Notes: generated by a model from the sequence alone, not told the origin. A stretch of 64,000 bases of DNA from a virus (IMGVR_UViG_3300010885_020237:1-64000), one strand, 5' to 3'; shown: positions 21,668 through 29,445, counted from the stretch's first letter. Numbers and translations are program-made.

Positions 21668-22309
21668 TTAAAATTTAAAACCTGTTAATTTTTCTATATC
21701 TCTTACAGTCACTTCATGTGAATGAACACCTGTAGGTTTATCTGGAGTATTATTAAATTCAAATGCGTACCATTGCTTTGTTTTTATAACATATATAACC
21801 TTCCAACATTTTGTTGGTACAGCTACTCTATGGACACCTATTTGTTTTGCAATCCCAAGACTTCCACACCACACATGAACAGAGTCATTTGTTTTAGCTA
21901 AATCTCTTTCAAATACTTCTACTGATTTCCAATCTCCTGCATTTAATGAATGATACTGTGCAGTCATATTACTAAAATAGAAACATTCATCTTGAACTTC
22001 TGGAGTTTGGCATTGATTTTCAGCAGCTGGTATATTATGGCCTCGATCTAGACCGCTTCCGACATAATCAGCTGCTAAACTAGTTTCAGACACTAATTGT
22101 GGATCAGGTTTAAAGTTATCTTTTCTAGCTAATGGTGTAGGGCATCCAACTTTTGCTTTAGTAATCCACCACTCTACTAATACTGGATATTTCAATAGCG
22201 TAGAATATACAGCTGTGTAATTAGTGTGTTTTAAACGCACTGTATCTTGAGAGTGTACTTTCGTTAACGCAGTTAACAAAACCAATACAATTATTAGCAT
22301 ATTTTTCAT
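21668..22309 (-). CDS. DNA/RNA non-specific endonuclease (NucA/EndoG family) with signal peptide
   Basis: SGLDRGH, FYFSNM..Q...LN.G.W; start MKNMLIIVLVLL at 22309. Confidence 0.9.
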   Translation of the reverse strand: MKNMLIIVLVLLTALTKVHSQDTVRLKHTNYTAVYSTLLKYPVLVEWWITKAKVGCPTPLARKDNFKPDPQLVSETSLAADYVGSGLDRGHNIPAAENQCQTPEVQDECFYFSNMTAQYHSLNAGDWKSVEVFERDLAKTNDSVHVWCGSLGIAKQIGVHRVAVPTKCWKVIYVIKTKQWYAFEFNNTPDKPTGVHSHEVTVRDIEKLTGFKF

Positions 22310-22328
22310 GCTTATAAATATATGTATT

Positions 22329-23093
22329 CTATAATTGGAATATAGAAAAATTGTCTTCACTATCCATAAGTATAGCTGTTCTATTTTCTACCCAATCTCC
22401 AGAATTTAAATACATATTATTGCCAATAGAATAAATTCCAGGCTGATGAATATGTCCACAAATAGCTCCATAACAATCTCTTTTTTTAGCCATTTCTACA
22501 GCTGCAGTTTCAAAATCATTAATATAATTAGTTGCAGCCTTTACTCCAGCTTTAATGTCCTTTGATATAGATTGATATGGCAATTTCATTGCTGATCTAT
22601 ACCTATTATACCACCTATTACACCAGAGCGCGAGGTCATATCCAATTGATCCAAGCTTAGCAATCCATTTATACTTTGTAATAAAGACGTCTATGATATC
22701 CCCATGAAACACTAGATAATTTCTCTTTTTATATACATCATCAGTGATCCATTTTTTTGTTTCTATAATATGATCTTCCTTAATCTGTATATTACCGAAA
22801 CTATTGCCTATAAATTCACTAAGAAATTCATCATGATTACCTCTAATCCAAATAATTTTAGTGCTATTTGAAAGCTTCAATATTTTTGAAATAACTTTCG
22901 TATGCTGTTTTTTCCACTTAGATCCTCTATTTAAAGCCCAACCATCTACGATATCACCATTTAAGATGAGTAAATCAGTTGGATGATTATCCAAGAATTC
23001 TATAAAATCTTTAGCTTTACTATCTAGTGTACCAAGATGTAAATCACTAACTATTACGGCCTTGTACTTTTTGATCCCAGTAGTTGTAATCAT
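22329..23093 (-). CDS. metallophosphoesterase, UDP-2,3-diacylglucosamine hydrolase (LpxH)-like
   Basis: SDLHLG, LNGDIVD, RGNHD, FHGD, CGHIH, NSGDWVE. Confidence 0.85.
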   Translation of the reverse strand: MITTTGIKKYKAVIVSDLHLGTLDSKAKDFIEFLDNHPTDLLILNGDIVDGWALNRGSKWKKQHTKVISKILKLSNSTKIIWIRGNHDEFLSEFIGNSFGNIQIKEDHIIETKKWITDDVYKKRNYLVFHGDIIDVFITKYKWIAKLGSIGYDLALWCNRWYNRYRSAMKLPYQSISKDIKAGVKAATNYINDFETAAVEMAKKRDCYGAICGHIHQPGIYSIGNNMYLNSGDWVENRTAILMDSEDNFSIFQL

Positions 23094-23769
23094 GCTTAAA
23101 AAATTCGTCGTTATTTCTATTTATCCAACAATTAAAAGCCAATTTTATCATATACCATACACCTTTTTTCGCAAATCGTCTACCTGGAGTATAAGCATAT
23201 ACATTGATAACTTTAAACTTGCTAGGTTTAATTTTCGAGCTGAGATGATAATCCTCAGCAATTTTATCTTCTTCATTAAATCCGCCTAATTTTTTAAATA
23301 TGTCTGTTTTAAATAACATAAAACCACCAATTGCAAATGGTTTTGTTTTTGAGCTAATCCATTGTATTACTTCGAATGCTCTATATACCCAATCAAATTC
23401 TTTTTCTAATGTTTTGAATTTGCATGTAACTAAATCATAATCACCTCCTACTATAATTCTCATACATTGAGCTATTATATCGACTTGCTGTAGATATATA
23501 TCTGCATCGATGAAAAGTACGTATGGGGTTTTTACAAATTTAGCACCATTATTTCTTGCCACTGCAGGTAAACCTCCTTTAACAATTTTTATTGTTTTAG
23601 AATTACTCTCTTGATATTTTTTTAAAAGCCTAATAGAACCTTCCTCATCTGATGAATCGGCTATTATAATTTGGCAATCTAATCTTTGATTTTGTATAAG
23701 CTTAATAATGTCTATAACGCCTCTTCCTTCATTCTTACATGGAATTACTATAGTTAGTTGAGCATTCAT
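23047..23769 (-). CDS. glycosyltransferase family 2
   Basis: VIPCKNE, ARNNGA, FIDAD, GGFNE, AEDY. Confidence 0.9.
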   Translation of the reverse strand: MNAQLTIVIPCKNEGRGVIDIIKLIQNQRLDCQIIIADSSDEEGSIRLLKKYQESNSKTIKIVKGGLPAVARNNGAKFVKTPYVLFIDADIYLQQVDIIAQCMRIIVGGDYDLVTCKFKTLEKEFDWVYRAFEVIQWISSKTKPFAIGGFMLFKTDIFKKLGGFNEEDKIAEDYHLSSKIKPSKFKVINVYAYTPGRRFAKKGVWYMIKLAFNCWINRNNDEFFKHDYNYWDQKVQGRNS

Positions 23770-24604: not shown

Positions 24605-25192
24605 TTAATCCCACCAATTGGCAGATTTTTGTTTAAGTATTTCAAATATTAAATTGCGACATCTTGTTTCATTGTATATACTAACTCTCGTAGAGATATG
24701 ATCAGAGTCATATTTTTCATTTCTATATTTCTTAAGAATTTTTCTTGTAGCAGATGGATATAAGTCCAAATATAGATCTAAATGATCTTCTACTATATTC
24801 ATATTCCATTCTCTTGATCCATATTGATCAGGTTCACTAAAGCTATCTTCTATTTTACAATAGTCATATTTTTCTAAACTATAATAGCTATGAAGTTCTC
24901 TTTCTATTAGATTAAGAACCACTGTCATCCAAAAATTGTCATTATCGATATTAGTGTGTCTATTAGCATTTACTAATTCTGCTCTTTGATGTTCAATCTT
25001 TTTCTGTAAAATAATAAGAATGAAAGCATCATCCCAATCTTTGTCATTATAAAGAGTTGGAATCCACCGAATAATATTCCAAACACCTTGGAAAAAATAT
25101 CTAATTCTCCAGTGAACATATTTTCCCCATTTAAATCTAGTGTTGTCCCATGCAGAATCTTTGGGCACAATTAATTTATTGTACTTTTTCAT
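24605..25192 (-). CDS. hypothetical phage protein
   Basis: 195 aa; W.P.LY.D.DWD and terminal WWD motif common in phage proteins. Confidence 0.7.
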   Translation of the reverse strand: MKKYNKLIVPKDSAWDNTRFKWGKYVHWRIRYFFQGVWNIIRWIPTLYNDKDWDDAFILIILQKKIEHQRAELVNANRHTNIDNDNFWMTVVLNLIERELHSYYSLEKYDYCKIEDSFSEPDQYGSREWNMNIVEDHLDLYLDLYPSATRKILKKYRNEKYDSDHISTRVSIYNETRCRNLIFEILKQKSANWWD

Positions 25193-25637
25193 CTTTCTTT
25201 AGTTTTTTAACATGATCATATAGGTCTAACAGAGTTCCATCGAAGTTTTCCATTATGCTGGTCAGCTCTTCTCTTTGTACATTGAATGTTTTACGGAAGT
25301 CAGAATAAATCTTAGCCATGAGCTCCTTTTCATTCTTCTGATAATCTTCGTTTAATCTTCTAGCTCGCTCTAAACAAAGACCAGCAATTTCATGTCTTTC
25401 ATCAGGATGTTTAATACCCACAAGTTTATCTTTCATTAAATAAAACTCGTGTTCCATTTGATATAAATAATCAGATGGATCGTAATCACCGTGTTTAATC
25501 TTTTCGTAAAGTGGAGTTTTTTTATCTAATTCTTTTCGAGTCTCGTATCTACGCCACCAATAATATTTATTGTATTTGGTTGGGTTTAAACATTGTAATT
25601 GTGACTCGATAAATGATCTATCGCAGAATGCTTGCAT
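25176..25637 (-). CDS. hypothetical protein
   Basis: 153 aa ORF downstream of TATATTTG promoter. Confidence 0.7.
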   Translation of the reverse strand: MQAFCDRSFIESQLQCLNPTKYNKYYWWRRYETRKELDKKTPLYEKIKHGDYDPSDYLYQMEHEFYLMKDKLVGIKHPDERHEIAGLCLERARRLNEDYQKNEKELMAKIYSDFRKTFNVQREELTSIMENFDGTLLDLYDHVKKLKKDEKVQ

Positions 25638-25687: not shown

Positions 25688-26329
25688 TTAAAATTCGAGT
25701 AGACTGTAATGTCTTGGATACACATGTAAATTAGTGATAGCCCAGTGCATTTGTCCTATTTCATAACCAGTTTCTAGTGATACTTTTTCCATTAGCTTTG
25801 CGAATGTATATTGATCATTTGAGAAACCAAATACTAAGTCTATTGATCTTGCGAATACTGTTAGATGCAATCGATTATCTTTAACATAGAAATTAAGCAC
25901 ATCATTACATGGAGTATCGTATTTGTATCTGTCTAATTCGTGTAGTATATAATGAACCACAATTGCTTTACGGGTTTCTGGATTGGATTTTAAATCTTGA
26001 ATGACTCTTTTTAGTTGATCATTATAGTTCCAAAAATAGCCATAATTTGAATTGACTTCTGTTGTACCAGGTACCATCATCTGTTTCCAGATCTTTGCTT
26101 TCTCTCCAATCTCTTTAGCGTCTCTATCTCCTTTAAGATACCAGTCCCATTCAAAGTCAGCGTAATCTAAATTAAACTTTCTTTCAGGAGTTGTGATAAT
26201 CTTATCTTCAGGATACAATAGAGTAAATGATTCATTGAAGATCGCTTTAGTACCTGCGTAATCTTCTCCTTCTGTCATTATCTTTTCATAGATAGCTTCA
26301 AATGCATAAGTTGCGTTATTGTACTTCAT
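25688..26329 (-). CDS. thymidylate synthase superfamily enzyme, dCMP hydroxymethylase-like
   Basis: VNSNYG, DTPCN (catalytic C), RSIDLVFGFSND (Asp at E. coli TS Asn177 position, as in T4 gp42), NLHVY. Confidence 0.8.
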   Translation of the reverse strand: MKYNNATYAFEAIYEKIMTEGEDYAGTKAIFNESFTLLYPEDKIITTPERKFNLDYADFEWDWYLKGDRDAKEIGEKAKIWKQMMVPGTTEVNSNYGYFWNYNDQLKRVIQDLKSNPETRKAIVVHYILHELDRYKYDTPCNDVLNFYVKDNRLHLTVFARSIDLVFGFSNDQYTFAKLMEKVSLETGYEIGQMHWAITNLHVYPRHYSLLEF

Positions 26330-26888
26330 ACTTTTCTACTTTAATAAATTGTTTTAAAAATTCTACACTACCGTTATCTCGATAGAATAGGTCTAAATAT
26401 ACTACTCTTTTTACACCTGATTGTAAAATAAGTTTCGCGCAATCTTTGCATGGGGAAAGAGTTAAATACATAGTAGTGCCATCAGTAGATAAGCCCATTT
26501 TTGCGGCTTTAAGAATACAATTAGATTCTGCGTGCAATACTTCTGATTTAGATACTAATTTAAATCTTCCATCATTATCTTCAAAAGGATACATAGCTAA
26601 TATAGTCTCATGATCGATCCATCCTCCCTCAGTTCCATTCGCATATAACTTATCTTCGCAGCAATTTTCCATTCCGCTTGGAGTTCCATTATAACCAAAA
26701 CTAATCACATTACCGGACTTTACCAAAACTGCACCAACTTTAGCTCTAGTGCAGTATGATAATGTTCCAATTTGTTTTGCTATCTCAATAAAAACTTTAT
26801 CAAGCTTATCTTGTTTCTTTCTCCTAATGAGTGCCGGTGCTTCCAAATCCACCTGATCCTCTTTGGGTATTTCTTGATTGTAATTCAT
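26316..26888 (-). CDS. dCMP deaminase
   Basis: VGAVLVK, GYNGTPSG, LHAESN, LSPCKDC; start uncertain. Confidence 0.92.
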   Translation of the reverse strand: MNYNQEIPKEDQVDLEAPALIRRKKQDKLDKVFIEIAKQIGTLSYCTRAKVGAVLVKSGNVISFGYNGTPSGMENCCEDKLYANGTEGGWIDHETILAMYPFEDNDGRFKLVSKSEVLHAESNCILKAAKMGLSTDGTTMYLTLSPCKDCAKLILQSGVKRVVYLDLFYRDNGSVEFLKQFIKVEKYEVQ

Positions 26889-27255
26889 CTACTAATTCTA
26901 TATTTTCGTAACTAACTGGTATTAACACTAATTGAATTAACTTCATGCCTGGTTCGATCTTTACAGTTCCATGAGTAATCTTAGTAACATGTAAATGAAT
27001 TTCGCCTTCATAATCTTCATCTACTACTTGAGCACCTACTTGTAATCCTAATTTTGTAGCTACGCCGCTTTTATTTAAAGCTAACCACATATATCCAGTA
27101 GGAATGCTAGCTTTTATTCCAGATGGAACTAATACGCTATCTCCAATACCTATAATTTTCGTAGTAAAATCTTCGGGCACATAAAAATCTATACCTGCTG
27201 ATTCAGGAGTTCCTCTGTTTGGAGTTTTAACCTCTCTTACTTTTTGTATTTTCAT
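26824..27255 (-). CDS. dut: trimeric dUTPase
   Basis: SAGIDF, KSG, VVDEDYEGEI, RGSGGFGSTG. Confidence 0.92.
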   Translation of the reverse strand: MKIQKVREVKTPNRGTPESAGIDFYVPEDFTTKIIGIGDSVLVPSGIKASIPTGYMWLALNKSGVATKLGLQVGAQVVDEDYEGEIHLHVTKITHGTVKIEPGMKLIQLVLIPVSYENIELVDELQSRNTQRGSGGFGSTGTH

Positions 27256-27264
27256 CTTTATTTT

Positions 27265-27573
27265 TTAATTACTACTGGTGTTACCTCTGGCGGTATTAAA
27301 TTCGCGATCGGCAAACATATTCTTATATTCATTTAATGCAGCCATATAAGCCACCGCGTCTAATAGATTGTCTTCTTTGTGATTATAAGACTGTCTGGAC
27401 AGCTTCAATGCAATCATACAATTAAACATATCAGCCGTAGTAATTTCTTTCCTAGACATAAGGGATGCTATTTTGGCTGATTCCATCATACCTTCTATGA
27501 ATGGTCCATATTGCCTTTCTTTTTCTTCATTACGCTCGAAAACTATTTCGTTTGCTTTTGTTAAGATATTCAT
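27265..27573 (-). CDS. DUF6378-like protein
   Basis: R...YG.F, MIALKLSR...K.DNLLD..AY. Confidence 0.65.
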   Translation of the reverse strand: MNILTKANEIVFERNEEKERQYGPFIEGMMESAKIASLMSRKEITTADMFNCMIALKLSRQSYNHKEDNLLDAVAYMAALNEYKNMFADREFNTARGNTSSN

Positions 27574-27622
27574 ATTTTATTTTTATTATACTAATATACT
27601 GATTCTTTGCTTACAATATCAA

Positions 27623-28510
27623 TTAATCTTTGTAGTAGGCTTTAAAGTCTCTAAAATCACCCCACTCGCGACTTGAATCTATATCACTAGCTTTTAAACT
27701 TGATTTAGGCATATTTCTTGCTACGTTCCAAAACCAATCTCCTTCTTTTCCGTGCTGTTTCATAATTTCCCATCCTTTGGCATCGTAAGTCTGAATACAG
27801 TCAAATGGAGGCGTAATTCTAGCGGGTTTTAAAAATGCTTTATCGTAAGTATAAAACTTAGCTCTACCTAATTCACCGTCTTGGATATTTCTAGCAACGG
27901 CAACTGCGTTGAATTGCGTTTTTGGTAATGCTATTTGCAGTGTTCTACTTAATACTCCAGTAGAAAATACACTCCACATCGTATTAATATCTAGATCTTT
28001 TAAAGCATCGTAAAATATTCTTACTCCACCAGCTACTACAGATTCGTGTTTAAGTCCAAATGGTAGATATTTTGCGCCTACTCTTTCTGCGAATTGTTCT
28101 GCCCATATATTAGCTGTTGGCATCGCTGGGATTTTTACAAAAAGAGGAATTCCTCCATATTCTATTGCAGTTAGTTGATGTTCTGATGCTTCTTTAGATG
28201 CTGGCATAACTAAATATAGTTTCTTATTGTATTTTCTTGCCAAGTGACATAGAGAGAAAGGGGCGAATCCAGTTCTTGGCGCTACGTATACCATTGCGTC
28301 CTCTTTTACTTGAGATATAAAAAAGTCGGCCATTTTAGCTTTACTTCCGTAAGTATCTACACCGTCATCGATTATATTAAATCCATCAATAACTTTTTTT
28401 GTAAATTTAAAATCGTGTTTATAGTCTTTAGTCATCTCTAAATAGTAATCTAAATTTCTACCATTTGAGAGATCTAAATTAGAGGTATCAGTTGCTTTAT
28501 TTAAATACAT
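27623..28510 (-). CDS. PLP-dependent fold-type II (cysteine synthase/TrpB-like) enzyme
   Basis: GSKAK (Schiff-base Lys candidate), VYVAPRTGFA, LPFGL.H, STGVLSR, YDAKGW, FWNVA. Confidence 0.7.
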   Translation of the reverse strand: MYLNKATDTSNLDLSNGRNLDYYLEMTKDYKHDFKFTKKVIDGFNIIDDGVDTYGSKAKMADFFISQVKEDAMVYVAPRTGFAPFSLCHLARKYNKKLYLVMPASKEASEHQLTAIEYGGIPLFVKIPAMPTANIWAEQFAERVGAKYLPFGLKHESVVAGGVRIFYDALKDLDINTMWSVFSTGVLSRTLQIALPKTQFNAVAVARNIQDGELGRAKFYTYDKAFLKPARITPPFDCIQTYDAKGWEIMKQHGKEGDWFWNVARNMPKSSLKASDIDSSREWGDFRDFKAYYKD

Positions 28511-29445
28511 TATAATATTTCATTTAAGAATGGATAATATTTTGGGCGTAAGTGAACTGACTGTTTCATTTCTAAAATATCTAACATTTTAGTGCCATCT
28601 TCATCAATCCATTCTTCTGGCCATTGAATAGTCTTTAGTCCTGATTCATTCATTATTTTATTTGCAATTTCTCTTACTTCCATTCTTTCAGCTCTGGTTC
28701 CAAAGAATTTCTGTTTCTTATAGAGTCCAGTTCCAGGAATTTTTCTACTCTCGTGTTCTACTGGAAGTAGATTAACTAAGGTCGCATCTTTTAATTGCTT
28801 CGCAAACTCTACGTATCTTGTAAATAGATCTATAGTTGCCGCTTTTGGATCAGGCTGTCTCATTAAATGAAAACGTAAATCGATATTACCAAAATATAAA
28901 GTAACTTCATCAAATTTACTATTAATCTGTTCTACTGATTCTCTTTTCAAGAATCCATGTAAAGTTCTACCTGCAGTAAAATCTAAAGTATGTTCAGGTT
29001 TCCATACGGATAACGCGTGTGAATCGCCAATAATTGCTTTTCTACTTACTAATCCATGAGATAAAAACGTATTATACCAAGGGATATGATTAACGTCTGG
29101 ATATTGCACATCTGGGATCTTTAGTCTTTGATTGAATTTGTTAAAATCAAATAGACAATCTGACTGTCTTAACTCTCCTTTAAAATCTGAAATTGCTTTC
29201 ATCTTTTCATAGTGGATGGGTTGTGGACCACCAGGAACATTAAAAGATCCAGCAACAAAATTAACTCCTTCACATATATAAAGCAGATCGTAATTCCCCC
29301 ACATCGCCGGCGGAGGATTTACGTCTACAGTATCGTGAGGATGATTATTCCATAACATTCTTGTGGCGATTAGTCCATACCCTCCTCCTTGAGAATTAAG
29401 AGTGGAACCCACATTTCCCATTATCGATATTAATCCTACTAACAT
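28510..29445 (-). CDS. hypothetical protein with SGNH-like C-terminal domain
   Basis: IIGDSH, YFGNIDLRFH, SVHL. Confidence 0.55.
   Translation of the reverse strand: MLVGLISIMGNVGSTLNSQGGGYGLIATRMLWNNHPHDTVDVNPPPAMWGNYDLLYICEGVNFVAGSFNVPGGPQPIHYEKMKAISDFKGELRQSDCLFDFNKFNQRLKIPDVQYPDVNHIPWYNTFLSHGLVSRKAIIGDSHALSVWKPEHTLDFTAGRTLHGFLKRESVEQINSKFDEVTLYFGNIDLRFHLMRQPDPKAATIDLFTRYVEFAKQLKDATLVNLLPVEHESRKIPGTGLYKKQKFFGTRAERMEVREIANKIMNESGLKTIQWPEEWIDEDGTKMLDILEMKQSVHLRPKYYPFLNEIL

Follow-up and report, generated by a model that had tools for sequence, protein, structure and literature searches.

A conserved phage gene cassette that probably makes 5-hydroxymethylcytosine and may decorate it by a kinase-less route

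The virus record IMGVR_UViG_3300010885_020237 contains a compact block of six minus-strand genes, between positions 25688 and 29445, that is predicted to build a hypermodified cytosine into phage DNA. The window analysed here is the first 64 kb of this 93.7-kb IMG/VR record, and positions are counted from its first nucleotide unless another contig is named. The record has an estimated completeness of 59% and a G+C content of about 31%, and the runs containing it are freshwater and lake metagenomes. It belongs to a phage with a contractile tail that encodes GroEL/GroES, ribonucleotide reductase and a family-A DNA polymerase. A preliminary description made from the sequence alone had placed here a thymidylate synthase (TS) homologue of the deoxycytidine monophosphate (dCMP) type, clustered with dCMP deaminase, dUTPase, a DUF6378-like protein, a fold-type II pyridoxal phosphate (PLP) enzyme and an SGNH-like protein with a GDSH motif, and all six genes were found at the positions it gave.

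Read in the direction of transcription, the block opens with the gene for a two-domain GDSH protein of 311 amino acids (28510-29445), after which comes the GroEL gene on its other side. The stop codon of the GDSH gene overlaps the start of the PLP gene (27623-28510; 295 amino acids) by 1 nt in the sequence TAATG; judged by this overlap, the two genes are translationally coupled. The next three genes encode a DUF6378 protein (27265-27573; PF19905, E 3.8e-12), a trimeric-type dUTPase (26824-27255; PF00692, E 3.8e-24) and a dCMP deaminase (26316-26888; PF00383, E 5.5e-23; phrog_174, E 2e-50), and these matches bear out the identities given to the neighbours in the preliminary description. The dUTPase scores 94-97 bits against the NCBIfam dut models, slightly under their cut-offs (about 103), a dCTP-deaminase-like match to it is weak, and its gene is not in the cluster of many relatives. 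The block closes with the gene for the TS homologue (25688-26329; 213 amino acids; PF00303, E 6e-27), whose start is overlapped by the dCMP deaminase stop by 14 nt. The DUF6378 protein was considered as a T4 gp56-like dCTPase and rejected in this role, as no similarity to gp56 or to any solved structure was found.

The TS homologue is likely a 5-hydroxymethyl-dCMP (5hm-dCMP) synthase of the T4 gp42 type, as judged from its sequence signature. Its best solved-structure match is T4 dCMP hydroxymethylase (1b49, E 1.4e-18). The stretch RSIDLVFGFSND aligns with T4 RSNDVVFGFRND, so that the last Asp of RSIDLVFGFSND falls on T4 Asp179, the equivalent of E. coli Asn177 (FSND against T4 FRND), and the NSNYG motif is conserved. 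The Cys of YDTPC and the Glu of FEWDWY align with T4 C148 and E60 (E. coli C146 and Glu58). Three diagnostic positions of this enzyme family, numbered as in E. coli ThyA, were given by Lee et al. (2026; PMC13326640). N177D makes dCMP the substrate, L143D/E gives a hydroxymethyl instead of a methyl product, with the acidic residue admitting water, and D169N marks the 5-hydroxy-dCMP synthases (PMC13326640). The window protein has E58, L143D (in YDTPC), C146, a retained D169 (in RSID) and N177D, which is the pattern of T4 gp42, and the five residues E58/D143/C146/D169/D177 are identical in 114 of 114 cluster-linked homologues from related contigs. Both points made earlier about this protein, the Asp at the Asn177 position together with NSNYG and the dCMP specificity predicted from it, therefore stand, the Asp being invariant across the window protein and its 114 relatives, and L143D and the retained D169 fit the same specificity. 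Because Asp169 is kept, a 5-hydroxymethyl rather than a 5-hydroxy product is predicted.

Two other assignments of the TS homologue were tried and rejected. Canonical ThyA does not fit a protein with Asp at 177 that stops where the C-terminal closing segment of ThyA (about 50 residues) starts, and that scores at best 76 bits against the NCBIfam ThyA equivalog, whose cut-off is 327. A 5-hydroxy-dCMP synthase of the RB69 gp48 type would carry D169N, which is missing here. Asn177 is retained in the M6 dUMP hydroxymethylase and in the canonical ThyA of relative G005. No canonical ThyA was found within the record of the window, and a second, canonical ThyA is present in relatives G005 (322 bits) and G002 (155 bits). 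T4 likewise has td beside gene 42.

Cultured phages offer two further cases of such TS homologues. The nearest one, 43% identical, is in Bacteroides phage BF486P2 (L085, 6156-6917, 8989-9669), where two paralogues with N177D are separated by dUTPase and hypothetical genes, with no PLP gene, GDSH gene or domain X (described below), and the pair may belong to another cytosine modification system. In Tenacibaculum phage PTm5 (L179, record 123342-123974; L176:8587-9576), a GDSH homologue lies amid ribonucleotide reductase genes, and a second TS homologue, read by eye, has EYPC ... RSNN ... D, that is, D169N with N177D, the published pattern of 5-hydroxy-dCMP synthases.

The 295-residue protein was modelled with AF2 (pLDDT 81), and its top Foldseek matches are all fold-type II PLP enzymes, which agrees with the fold first proposed for it. 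Threonine deaminase, serine racemase and D-cysteine desulfhydrase lead the list, and O-ureidoserine synthase and cyanoalanine synthase are also near. The protein has no Pfam match and does not reach the PALP model, which a relative in Erythrobacter phage R6L does reach. Against the PHROG profiles it matches phrog_7093 (E 2.1e-23, residues 55-264), the family of which M6 gp52 is the full-length member (E 2e-159). Lee et al. showed that M6 gp52 is a PLP-dependent decarboxylase that converts C-alpha-glycinylthymidine in DNA to 5-aminoethyl-dU, that ViI gp226 is its homologue, and proposed Lys36 of gp52 as the internal-aldimine lysine (Lee et al., 2021; PMC8989533). The invariant Lys57 of the window protein falls on this Lys36 in a MAFFT alignment, and the two proteins have in common the STG loop and the C-terminal motif PF..YD.K.W..FWN. 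An hhalign comparison of a shallow PLP alignment with M6 gp52 alone recovered the C-terminal motif only; the PHROG profile and the MAFFT alignment are more informative. On sequence grounds, the parallel with the ViI and M6 enzymes, which the preliminary description had drawn, is a family relationship that goes beyond analogy and is closer than was proposed.

Relatives of the PLP protein at 74-91% identity were found over hundreds of metagenome proteins, and the only cultured phages with relatives are R6L and Microcystis phage Mae-JY30. R6L gp1 (L002) is an 810-residue fusion of ParB, an N6/N4 DNA methylase and PALP, and Mae-JY30 (L004) has a stand-alone gp52-type PLP gene beside two ParB genes. 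Thus the PLP family recurs with DNA-modifying proteins. No TS homologue was found in R6L or Mae-JY30, and their PLP proteins may be used in a different DNA modification; a PAPS-reductase-like gene lies nearby in R6L. In the related contigs L094, L095, L099, L108 and L110, the PLP gene is 37-41% identical to that of the window and most flanking genes are 56-83% identical, so that the gene at this position seems to have been replaced by a different PLP subtype. A 271-base contig identical to 28024-28294, within the PLP gene, was found in a lake metatranscriptome library and may be DNA carry-over.

The GDSH protein gave a confident AF2 model (pLDDT 94.4, pTM 0.91) with an N-terminal alpha/beta domain (residues 1-130) and a C-terminal domain of the SGNH-hydrolase fold (residues 133-311). 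The latter holds the GDSH motif at residues 140-143 and matches SGNH hydrolases with VIA Z of 10-11.7 and Foldseek E down to 6e-6, among them acetyl esterases and peptidoglycan O-acetyltransferases, so that the SGNH-like character first read from the motif is borne out by the structure. Across 81 diverse relatives, D141, S142, H143, H193, R234, R254, E292 and H298 are invariant, and G140, T161, L162, G186, N187 and D189 nearly so. These residues agree with blocks I, III and V of SGNH enzymes, to which the family adds Arg and His residues of its own; block II at T161/L162 is uncertain, and the Asp of DxxH is not evident, an invariant Glu292 standing six residues upstream of H298. The structure searches were swamped by matches to the SGNH domain and gave no identity for the N-terminal domain. 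One relative matched the N-terminal model of T4 beta-glucosyltransferase faintly (E 0.078), which serves as a lead only.

An exhaustive search for the GDSH family returned 378 representatives, several of which are long fusions. One of these, P0348, joins an FkbM methyltransferase, PF18723 (E 4.5e-11) and GDSH, and ORF233c, a 795-residue protein of Aeromonas phages 44RR, 31 and 25, joins GDSH to a divergent, weakly matching PF18723-like domain. PF18723 is the helical domain of 5-hydroxymethyldeoxyuridine (5-hmdU) DNA kinases, and M6 gp55, which adjoins the kinase gp54, is a stand-alone member. Six further representatives fuse GDSH to an uncharacterised domain of about 340 residues, here called X. 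The PF18723 fusions would tie the GDSH protein to DNA hypermodification. The three Aeromonas phages have genes 42 and 56 and lack glucosyltransferases (Petrov et al., 2010; PMC2993671), and the gp42-like protein of 44RR has the same active-site signature as the TS homologue of the window. In 44RR2.8t (L003:4375-8355), ORF233c directly follows a sodium:solute symporter gene (PF00474, E 6e-53), whose product might import a precursor.

The genes of the cassette are kept together across related phages. Linkage was counted over 41 GDSH-anchored contigs that extend 6 kb or more beyond GDSH on its downstream side, 12 of which carry a GDSH protein only 34-45% identical to that of the window. A gp42-type TS gene and a DUF6378 gene were present at every locus (41/41 each), the latter being the most constant neighbour of GDSH, a PLP gene at 36/41 and X at 31/41; the ten loci without X all belong to the close group of the window. 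The clustering exceeds chance. Among 80 contigs found through PLP, the gene order is GroES-GroEL-(GDSH)-PLP-DUF6378-(dUT)-dCD-TS-o153, where dUT and dCD are the dUTPase and dCMP deaminase genes and o153 is a 153-residue open reading frame (ORF). In part of the GroEL lineage X lies between GDSH and PLP, and a few contigs have no PLP gene and carry a TS-X fusion. In the distant phages (GDSH 34-45% identical) the order is DUF6378-GDSH-X-PLP-TS. The cassette genes fall into hundreds of protein clusters at 74-95% identity.

Domain X is a conserved partner that the preliminary description did not name in its cluster and that lies outside the record. At least 422 clusters make up the family, none of them named. 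The GroEL-GDSH-PLP layout of the window recurs in complete relative G001 (174 kb), which carries X at 117.7 kb, about 115 kb from the cluster. X stands there in a module (L171:8117-11633) of X' (334 residues), a 165-residue ORF, X (389 residues) and an HhH-GPD glycosylase-like protein (PF00730, E 4e-7), X' being a distant paralogue of X. In G002 the corresponding module (L170:5732-9711, at 135-137 kb) reads X'-158aa-X-GDSH, with GDSH in place of the HhH-GPD gene. Every complete relative examined has X, and G001 and G002 hold TS, PLP, GDSH and X, the TS gene of G001 being truncated by the contig end. Because G001 and G002 carry X away from the cluster, the X gene of the phage studied here is most likely, on this comparison, in the missing 41% of its genome, and the same is probable for X'. 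Fusions of TS and X, 602-605 residues long, were found at L103:12988-14796 and L105:12077-13894, in clusters without a PLP gene. The X profile found nothing among PDB sequences, nothing in Pfam over 19 members and no cultured phage by tblastn, and its comparison with M6 gp51 (hhalign E 0.36-0.67) was taken as negative.

The known activating enzymes of thymidine hypermodification were searched for beyond the window. In the 93.7-kb record, G001 and G002, no match at E<=1 was found to PF18748, the P-loop 5-hmdU DNA kinase, nor was any match found to PF18724, the amino-acid:DNA transferase (aGPT-Pplase2), or to PF18723 (aGPT-Pplase1/HMUDK_hel). The preliminary description had reported that no 5hm-kinase or aGPT-PPlase was visible in the window and had suggested a search of the rest of the genome for such genes. 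That observation extends to the whole record on all three models, and the wider search returned none.

Taken together, these results suggest a conserved phage pathway in which cytosine is converted to 5-hydroxymethylcytosine (5hmC) and then decorated by a kinase-less hypermodification of the amino-acid type, a reading to which we give a probability of roughly 0.6. The evidence is in line with the coupling of a PLP enzyme to a 5hmC-type or otherwise C5-modified cytosine that the preliminary description had put forward. In the first step, indicated by the sequence signature, the short TS homologue would convert dCMP to 5hm-dCMP, with the pyrimidine pools adjusted by dCMP deaminase and dUTPase; thymidylate would probably come from a separate canonical ThyA, as in related genomes, or from the host. 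In the second, by analogy with T4, 5hm-dCMP would be phosphorylated and then polymerised into DNA by the phage polymerase. The fusions and the synteny suggest a third step in which the GDSH/SGNH protein and the helical X and X' work on the 5-hydroxymethyl group. The SGNH domain would most likely perform an activating or group-transfer step through an acyl-enzyme of Ser142/His298, and an amino acid or a comparable group with an amine would be added in this way. This role is proposed because the domain is fused to PF18723, the helical companion of the 5-hmdU kinase, and because no kinase was found; by analogy, the SGNH domain would replace the step of the P-loop kinase in the thymidine pathways, and X and X' may bind DNA or transfer the group. 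In the fourth step, suggested by family membership, the PLP enzyme would join the appended amino acid's free alpha-amine in a Schiff base and remove the carboxylate. This would parallel the action of M6 gp52 and ViI gp226 on thymine adducts and make the PLP protein presumably a decarboxylase of a base-linked amino-acid adduct. The chemistry of the decorated cytosine is drawn from this analogy, and the product would be an aminoalkyl-type side chain on cytosine C5, with the shielding of phage DNA from host nucleases as the likely benefit.

Several observations weigh against this pathway. X and X' are absent from the 93.7-kb record. In some relatives the locus has no PLP or no GDSH, so that co-occurrence of the components is not strict. 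Neither a deoxynucleoside monophosphate kinase nor a T4-type dCTPase was found among the ORFs scanned within the 64 kb (ten other window ORFs, against PHROG), and the GDSH protein of the window did not reach any Pfam GDSL model. Comparison of X with PF18724, the amino-acid:DNA transferase, showed nothing significant, and the match of X to a small PF18723-type alignment, in which two motifs keep their order, is borderline (hhalign P 0.012). A relation of X to the aGPT-Pplase/PF18723 superfamily is only suggested, from this P value, the motif order and the occurrence as a paralogous pair. For the TS homologue, a profile and phylogenetic comparison with gp42, ThyA and dUMP hydroxymethylases had been proposed at the outset. 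The profile and signature part came out for the gp42 type; a maximum-likelihood tree of 22 TS homologues did not resolve its deep branches, has long branches, and was not used as evidence. Lastly, the TS-X fusions suggest that some steps could act on free nucleotides and not on DNA.

That last point leads to a pre-replicative version, in which X, the GDSH protein and the PLP enzyme derivatise 5hm-dCMP, or its di- or triphosphate, and the finished hypermodified nucleotide is polymerised by the phage polymerase. A TS-X fusion suits channelling from a mononucleotide, the known 5hmC carbamoyltransferase also takes 5hmdCTP (PMC8670742), and the cassette is located among nucleotide-pool genes. The characterised relatives of the PLP enzyme, M6 gp52 and ViI gp226, nevertheless work on DNA (PMC8989533), PF18723, to which GDSH is fused in other phages, is a DNA-kinase domain, and the R6L member of the PLP family is fused to a ParB/DNA-methylase protein. 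We regard modification before replication as unlikely.

It is also rather improbable that the phage makes plain 5hmC only, with the PLP and GDSH proteins as unrelated auxiliaries acting in amino-acid metabolism or as an esterase on host envelope sugars. Linkage of GDSH to a gp42-type gene at 41 of 41 loci, down to 34% GDSH identity, speaks against it, as do the GDSH-X, GDSH-PF18723 and TS-X fusions and the membership of the PLP protein in the M6 gp52 family with the proposed PLP-binding lysine aligned. SGNH domains are frequent in phage tail and envelope-degrading proteins, and the window has a glycosyltransferase/acyl-sugar cluster of its own; the GDSH protein, however, lacks both a signal peptide and a tail-protein setting, and its translation is coupled to that of PLP. 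That both proteins fall under the curated Pfam and NCBIfam thresholds remains in favour of independent roles.

The nearest solved folds of the PLP protein all use beta-elimination or beta-replacement chemistry, which raises another division of labour. The PLP enzyme would itself attach the amino acid, through an aminoacrylate that is derived from serine or O-acetylserine and trapped by the oxygen of the 5-hydroxymethyl group, and the GDSH protein would supply or remove the acetyl group. This would suit SGNH enzymes, which are typically acetyl esterases or transferases, and it would account both for the missing kinase and for the pairing of PLP with GDSH without X at the locus of the window. 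It is improbable, given that the sole characterised members of the PLP family, M6 gp52 and ViI gp226, are decarboxylases (PMC8989533), and that X, present in every complete relative examined, provides a separate transferase candidate. Finally, the proposal that the TS homologue makes thymidylate in the ordinary way or hydroxymethylates dUMP, with hypermodification on thymine as in M6 and ViI, can draw on the naming of the matched PHROG families as thymidylate synthase, on about 30% identity to PaMx11-like phage TS homologues (one annotated dUMP hydroxymethyltransferase) and on the neighbouring dCMP deaminase and dUTPase, which both yield dUMP, but is very improbable in view of Asp in place of Asn177 in 115 of 115 sequences where M6 dUMP hydroxymethylase and canonical ThyA have Asn, of the separate canonical ThyA in relatives, and of a score far under the ThyA equivalog cut-offs in a protein that lacks the ThyA C-terminal segment.

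The kinase-less decoration of 5hmC proposed here can be compared with four groups of known systems. The thymidine pathways of M6, ViI, PaMx11, PhiW-14 and SP10 use a dUMP hydroxymethylase, the 5-HMUDK kinase PF18748, PF18723, PF18724 and a PLP decarboxylase (PMC8989533). Common to them and to the window are a TS-homologue hydroxymethylase clustered with tailoring enzymes, a PLP enzyme of the PHROG family of M6 gp52, a GDSH family fused to PF18723 in other phages, and, in the complete relatives, a paralogous helical pair, X/X', of the kind in which aGPT-Pplase genes often occur. Unlike these pathways, the window starts from cytosine (N177D) and not from uracil, has DUF6378 as a constant extra member of its cassette, and, with its relatives G001 and G002, shows an SGNH two-domain protein plus X instead of a P-loop kinase or PF18724.

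With T4 glucosyl-5hmC the window has in common an identical TS-homologue signature, a dCMP deaminase in the nucleotide programme, and the predicted order of pre-replicative 5hm-dCMP followed by decoration. The window TS homologue has 213 amino acids against the 246 of gp42, a difference of 33, with an identity of about 30% across the stretch that aligns. A T4-type glucosyltransferase was not seen next to the cassette, the scan of window ORFs gave no gp56-type dCTPase, and the putative decorators are of the PLP and SGNH types. The MetaGPA 5hmC carbamoyltransferase pathway, which yields 5-carbamoyloxymethylcytosine (PMC8670742), resembles the window in being a metagenomic phage cluster that groups a dCMP-type TS homologue with a dCMP deaminase and a tailoring enzyme, and it places a non-sugar group on 5hmC, as is predicted for the window. 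Its tailoring enzyme is a TobZ-like carbamoyltransferase, of which none was seen in the window cassette, and the paper makes no mention of PLP, SGNH or X proteins (PMC8670742). The 5-hydroxy-dCMP synthases that work with arabinosyl or hexosyl transferases in RB69, DLP3 and RL38JI (PMC13326640) share N177D, the acidic residue 143 and a hydroxyl handle on cytosine. They differ in having D169N where the window keeps Asp169, for which 5-hydroxymethyl and not 5-hydroxy is predicted, and no glycosyltransferase adjoins the cassette genes of the window.

Other genes around the block were also inspected. The downstream neighbour of the TS gene, o153 (25176-25637, minus strand), has no match in Pfam, PHROG or NCBIfam. 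In most related contigs a copy 39-82% identical stands after TS, in a synteny limited to the GroEL-carrying lineage, and the ORF lies outside the module in the distant phages. Beyond the nucleotide block, 21668-23769 holds a nuclease (phrog_14168), whose N-terminus is hydrophobic and resembles a signal peptide, together with a metallophosphoesterase and a gene like those of family-2 glycosyltransferases. The large glycosyltransferase/acyl-sugar cluster of the window spans about 1.6-14.9 kb.

The most far-reaching form of the proposal is that a widespread family of lake and marine phages makes an undescribed amino-acid-derived cytosine, for example a C5 aminoalkyl or aminoalkoxymethyl derivative, by a kinase-free route of SGNH, X/X' and a gp52-type PLP enzyme, and this form is held tentatively, as possible rather than probable. 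A full-text literature search returned no paper that joins a dCMP hydroxymethylase with PLP, SGNH or X-type enzymes; the 5hmC derivatives it returned carry sugars or, in one case, a carbamoyl group, in addition to glycosylated 5-hydroxycytosine, and in the literature examined amino-acid-derived side chains are described for thymine only. If the proposal is true, cytosine would for the first time be seen with an amino-acid-type hypermodification and the SGNH fold would gain a new role on DNA, and a cytosine counterpart with a different activating chemistry would broaden the known chemistry of natural DNA. The cassette offers a testable set of TS, GDSH, X, X', PLP and DUF6378, and the cultured Aeromonas phages 44RR, 31 and 25, with gene 42, a GDSH-PF18723 fusion and no glucosyltransferase, have DNA that is open to direct analysis. 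New DNA-modifying enzymes of this kind would be potentially useful for the labelling of 5hmC. For the phages themselves, such a modification would account for resistance to host nucleases in an abundant freshwater group.

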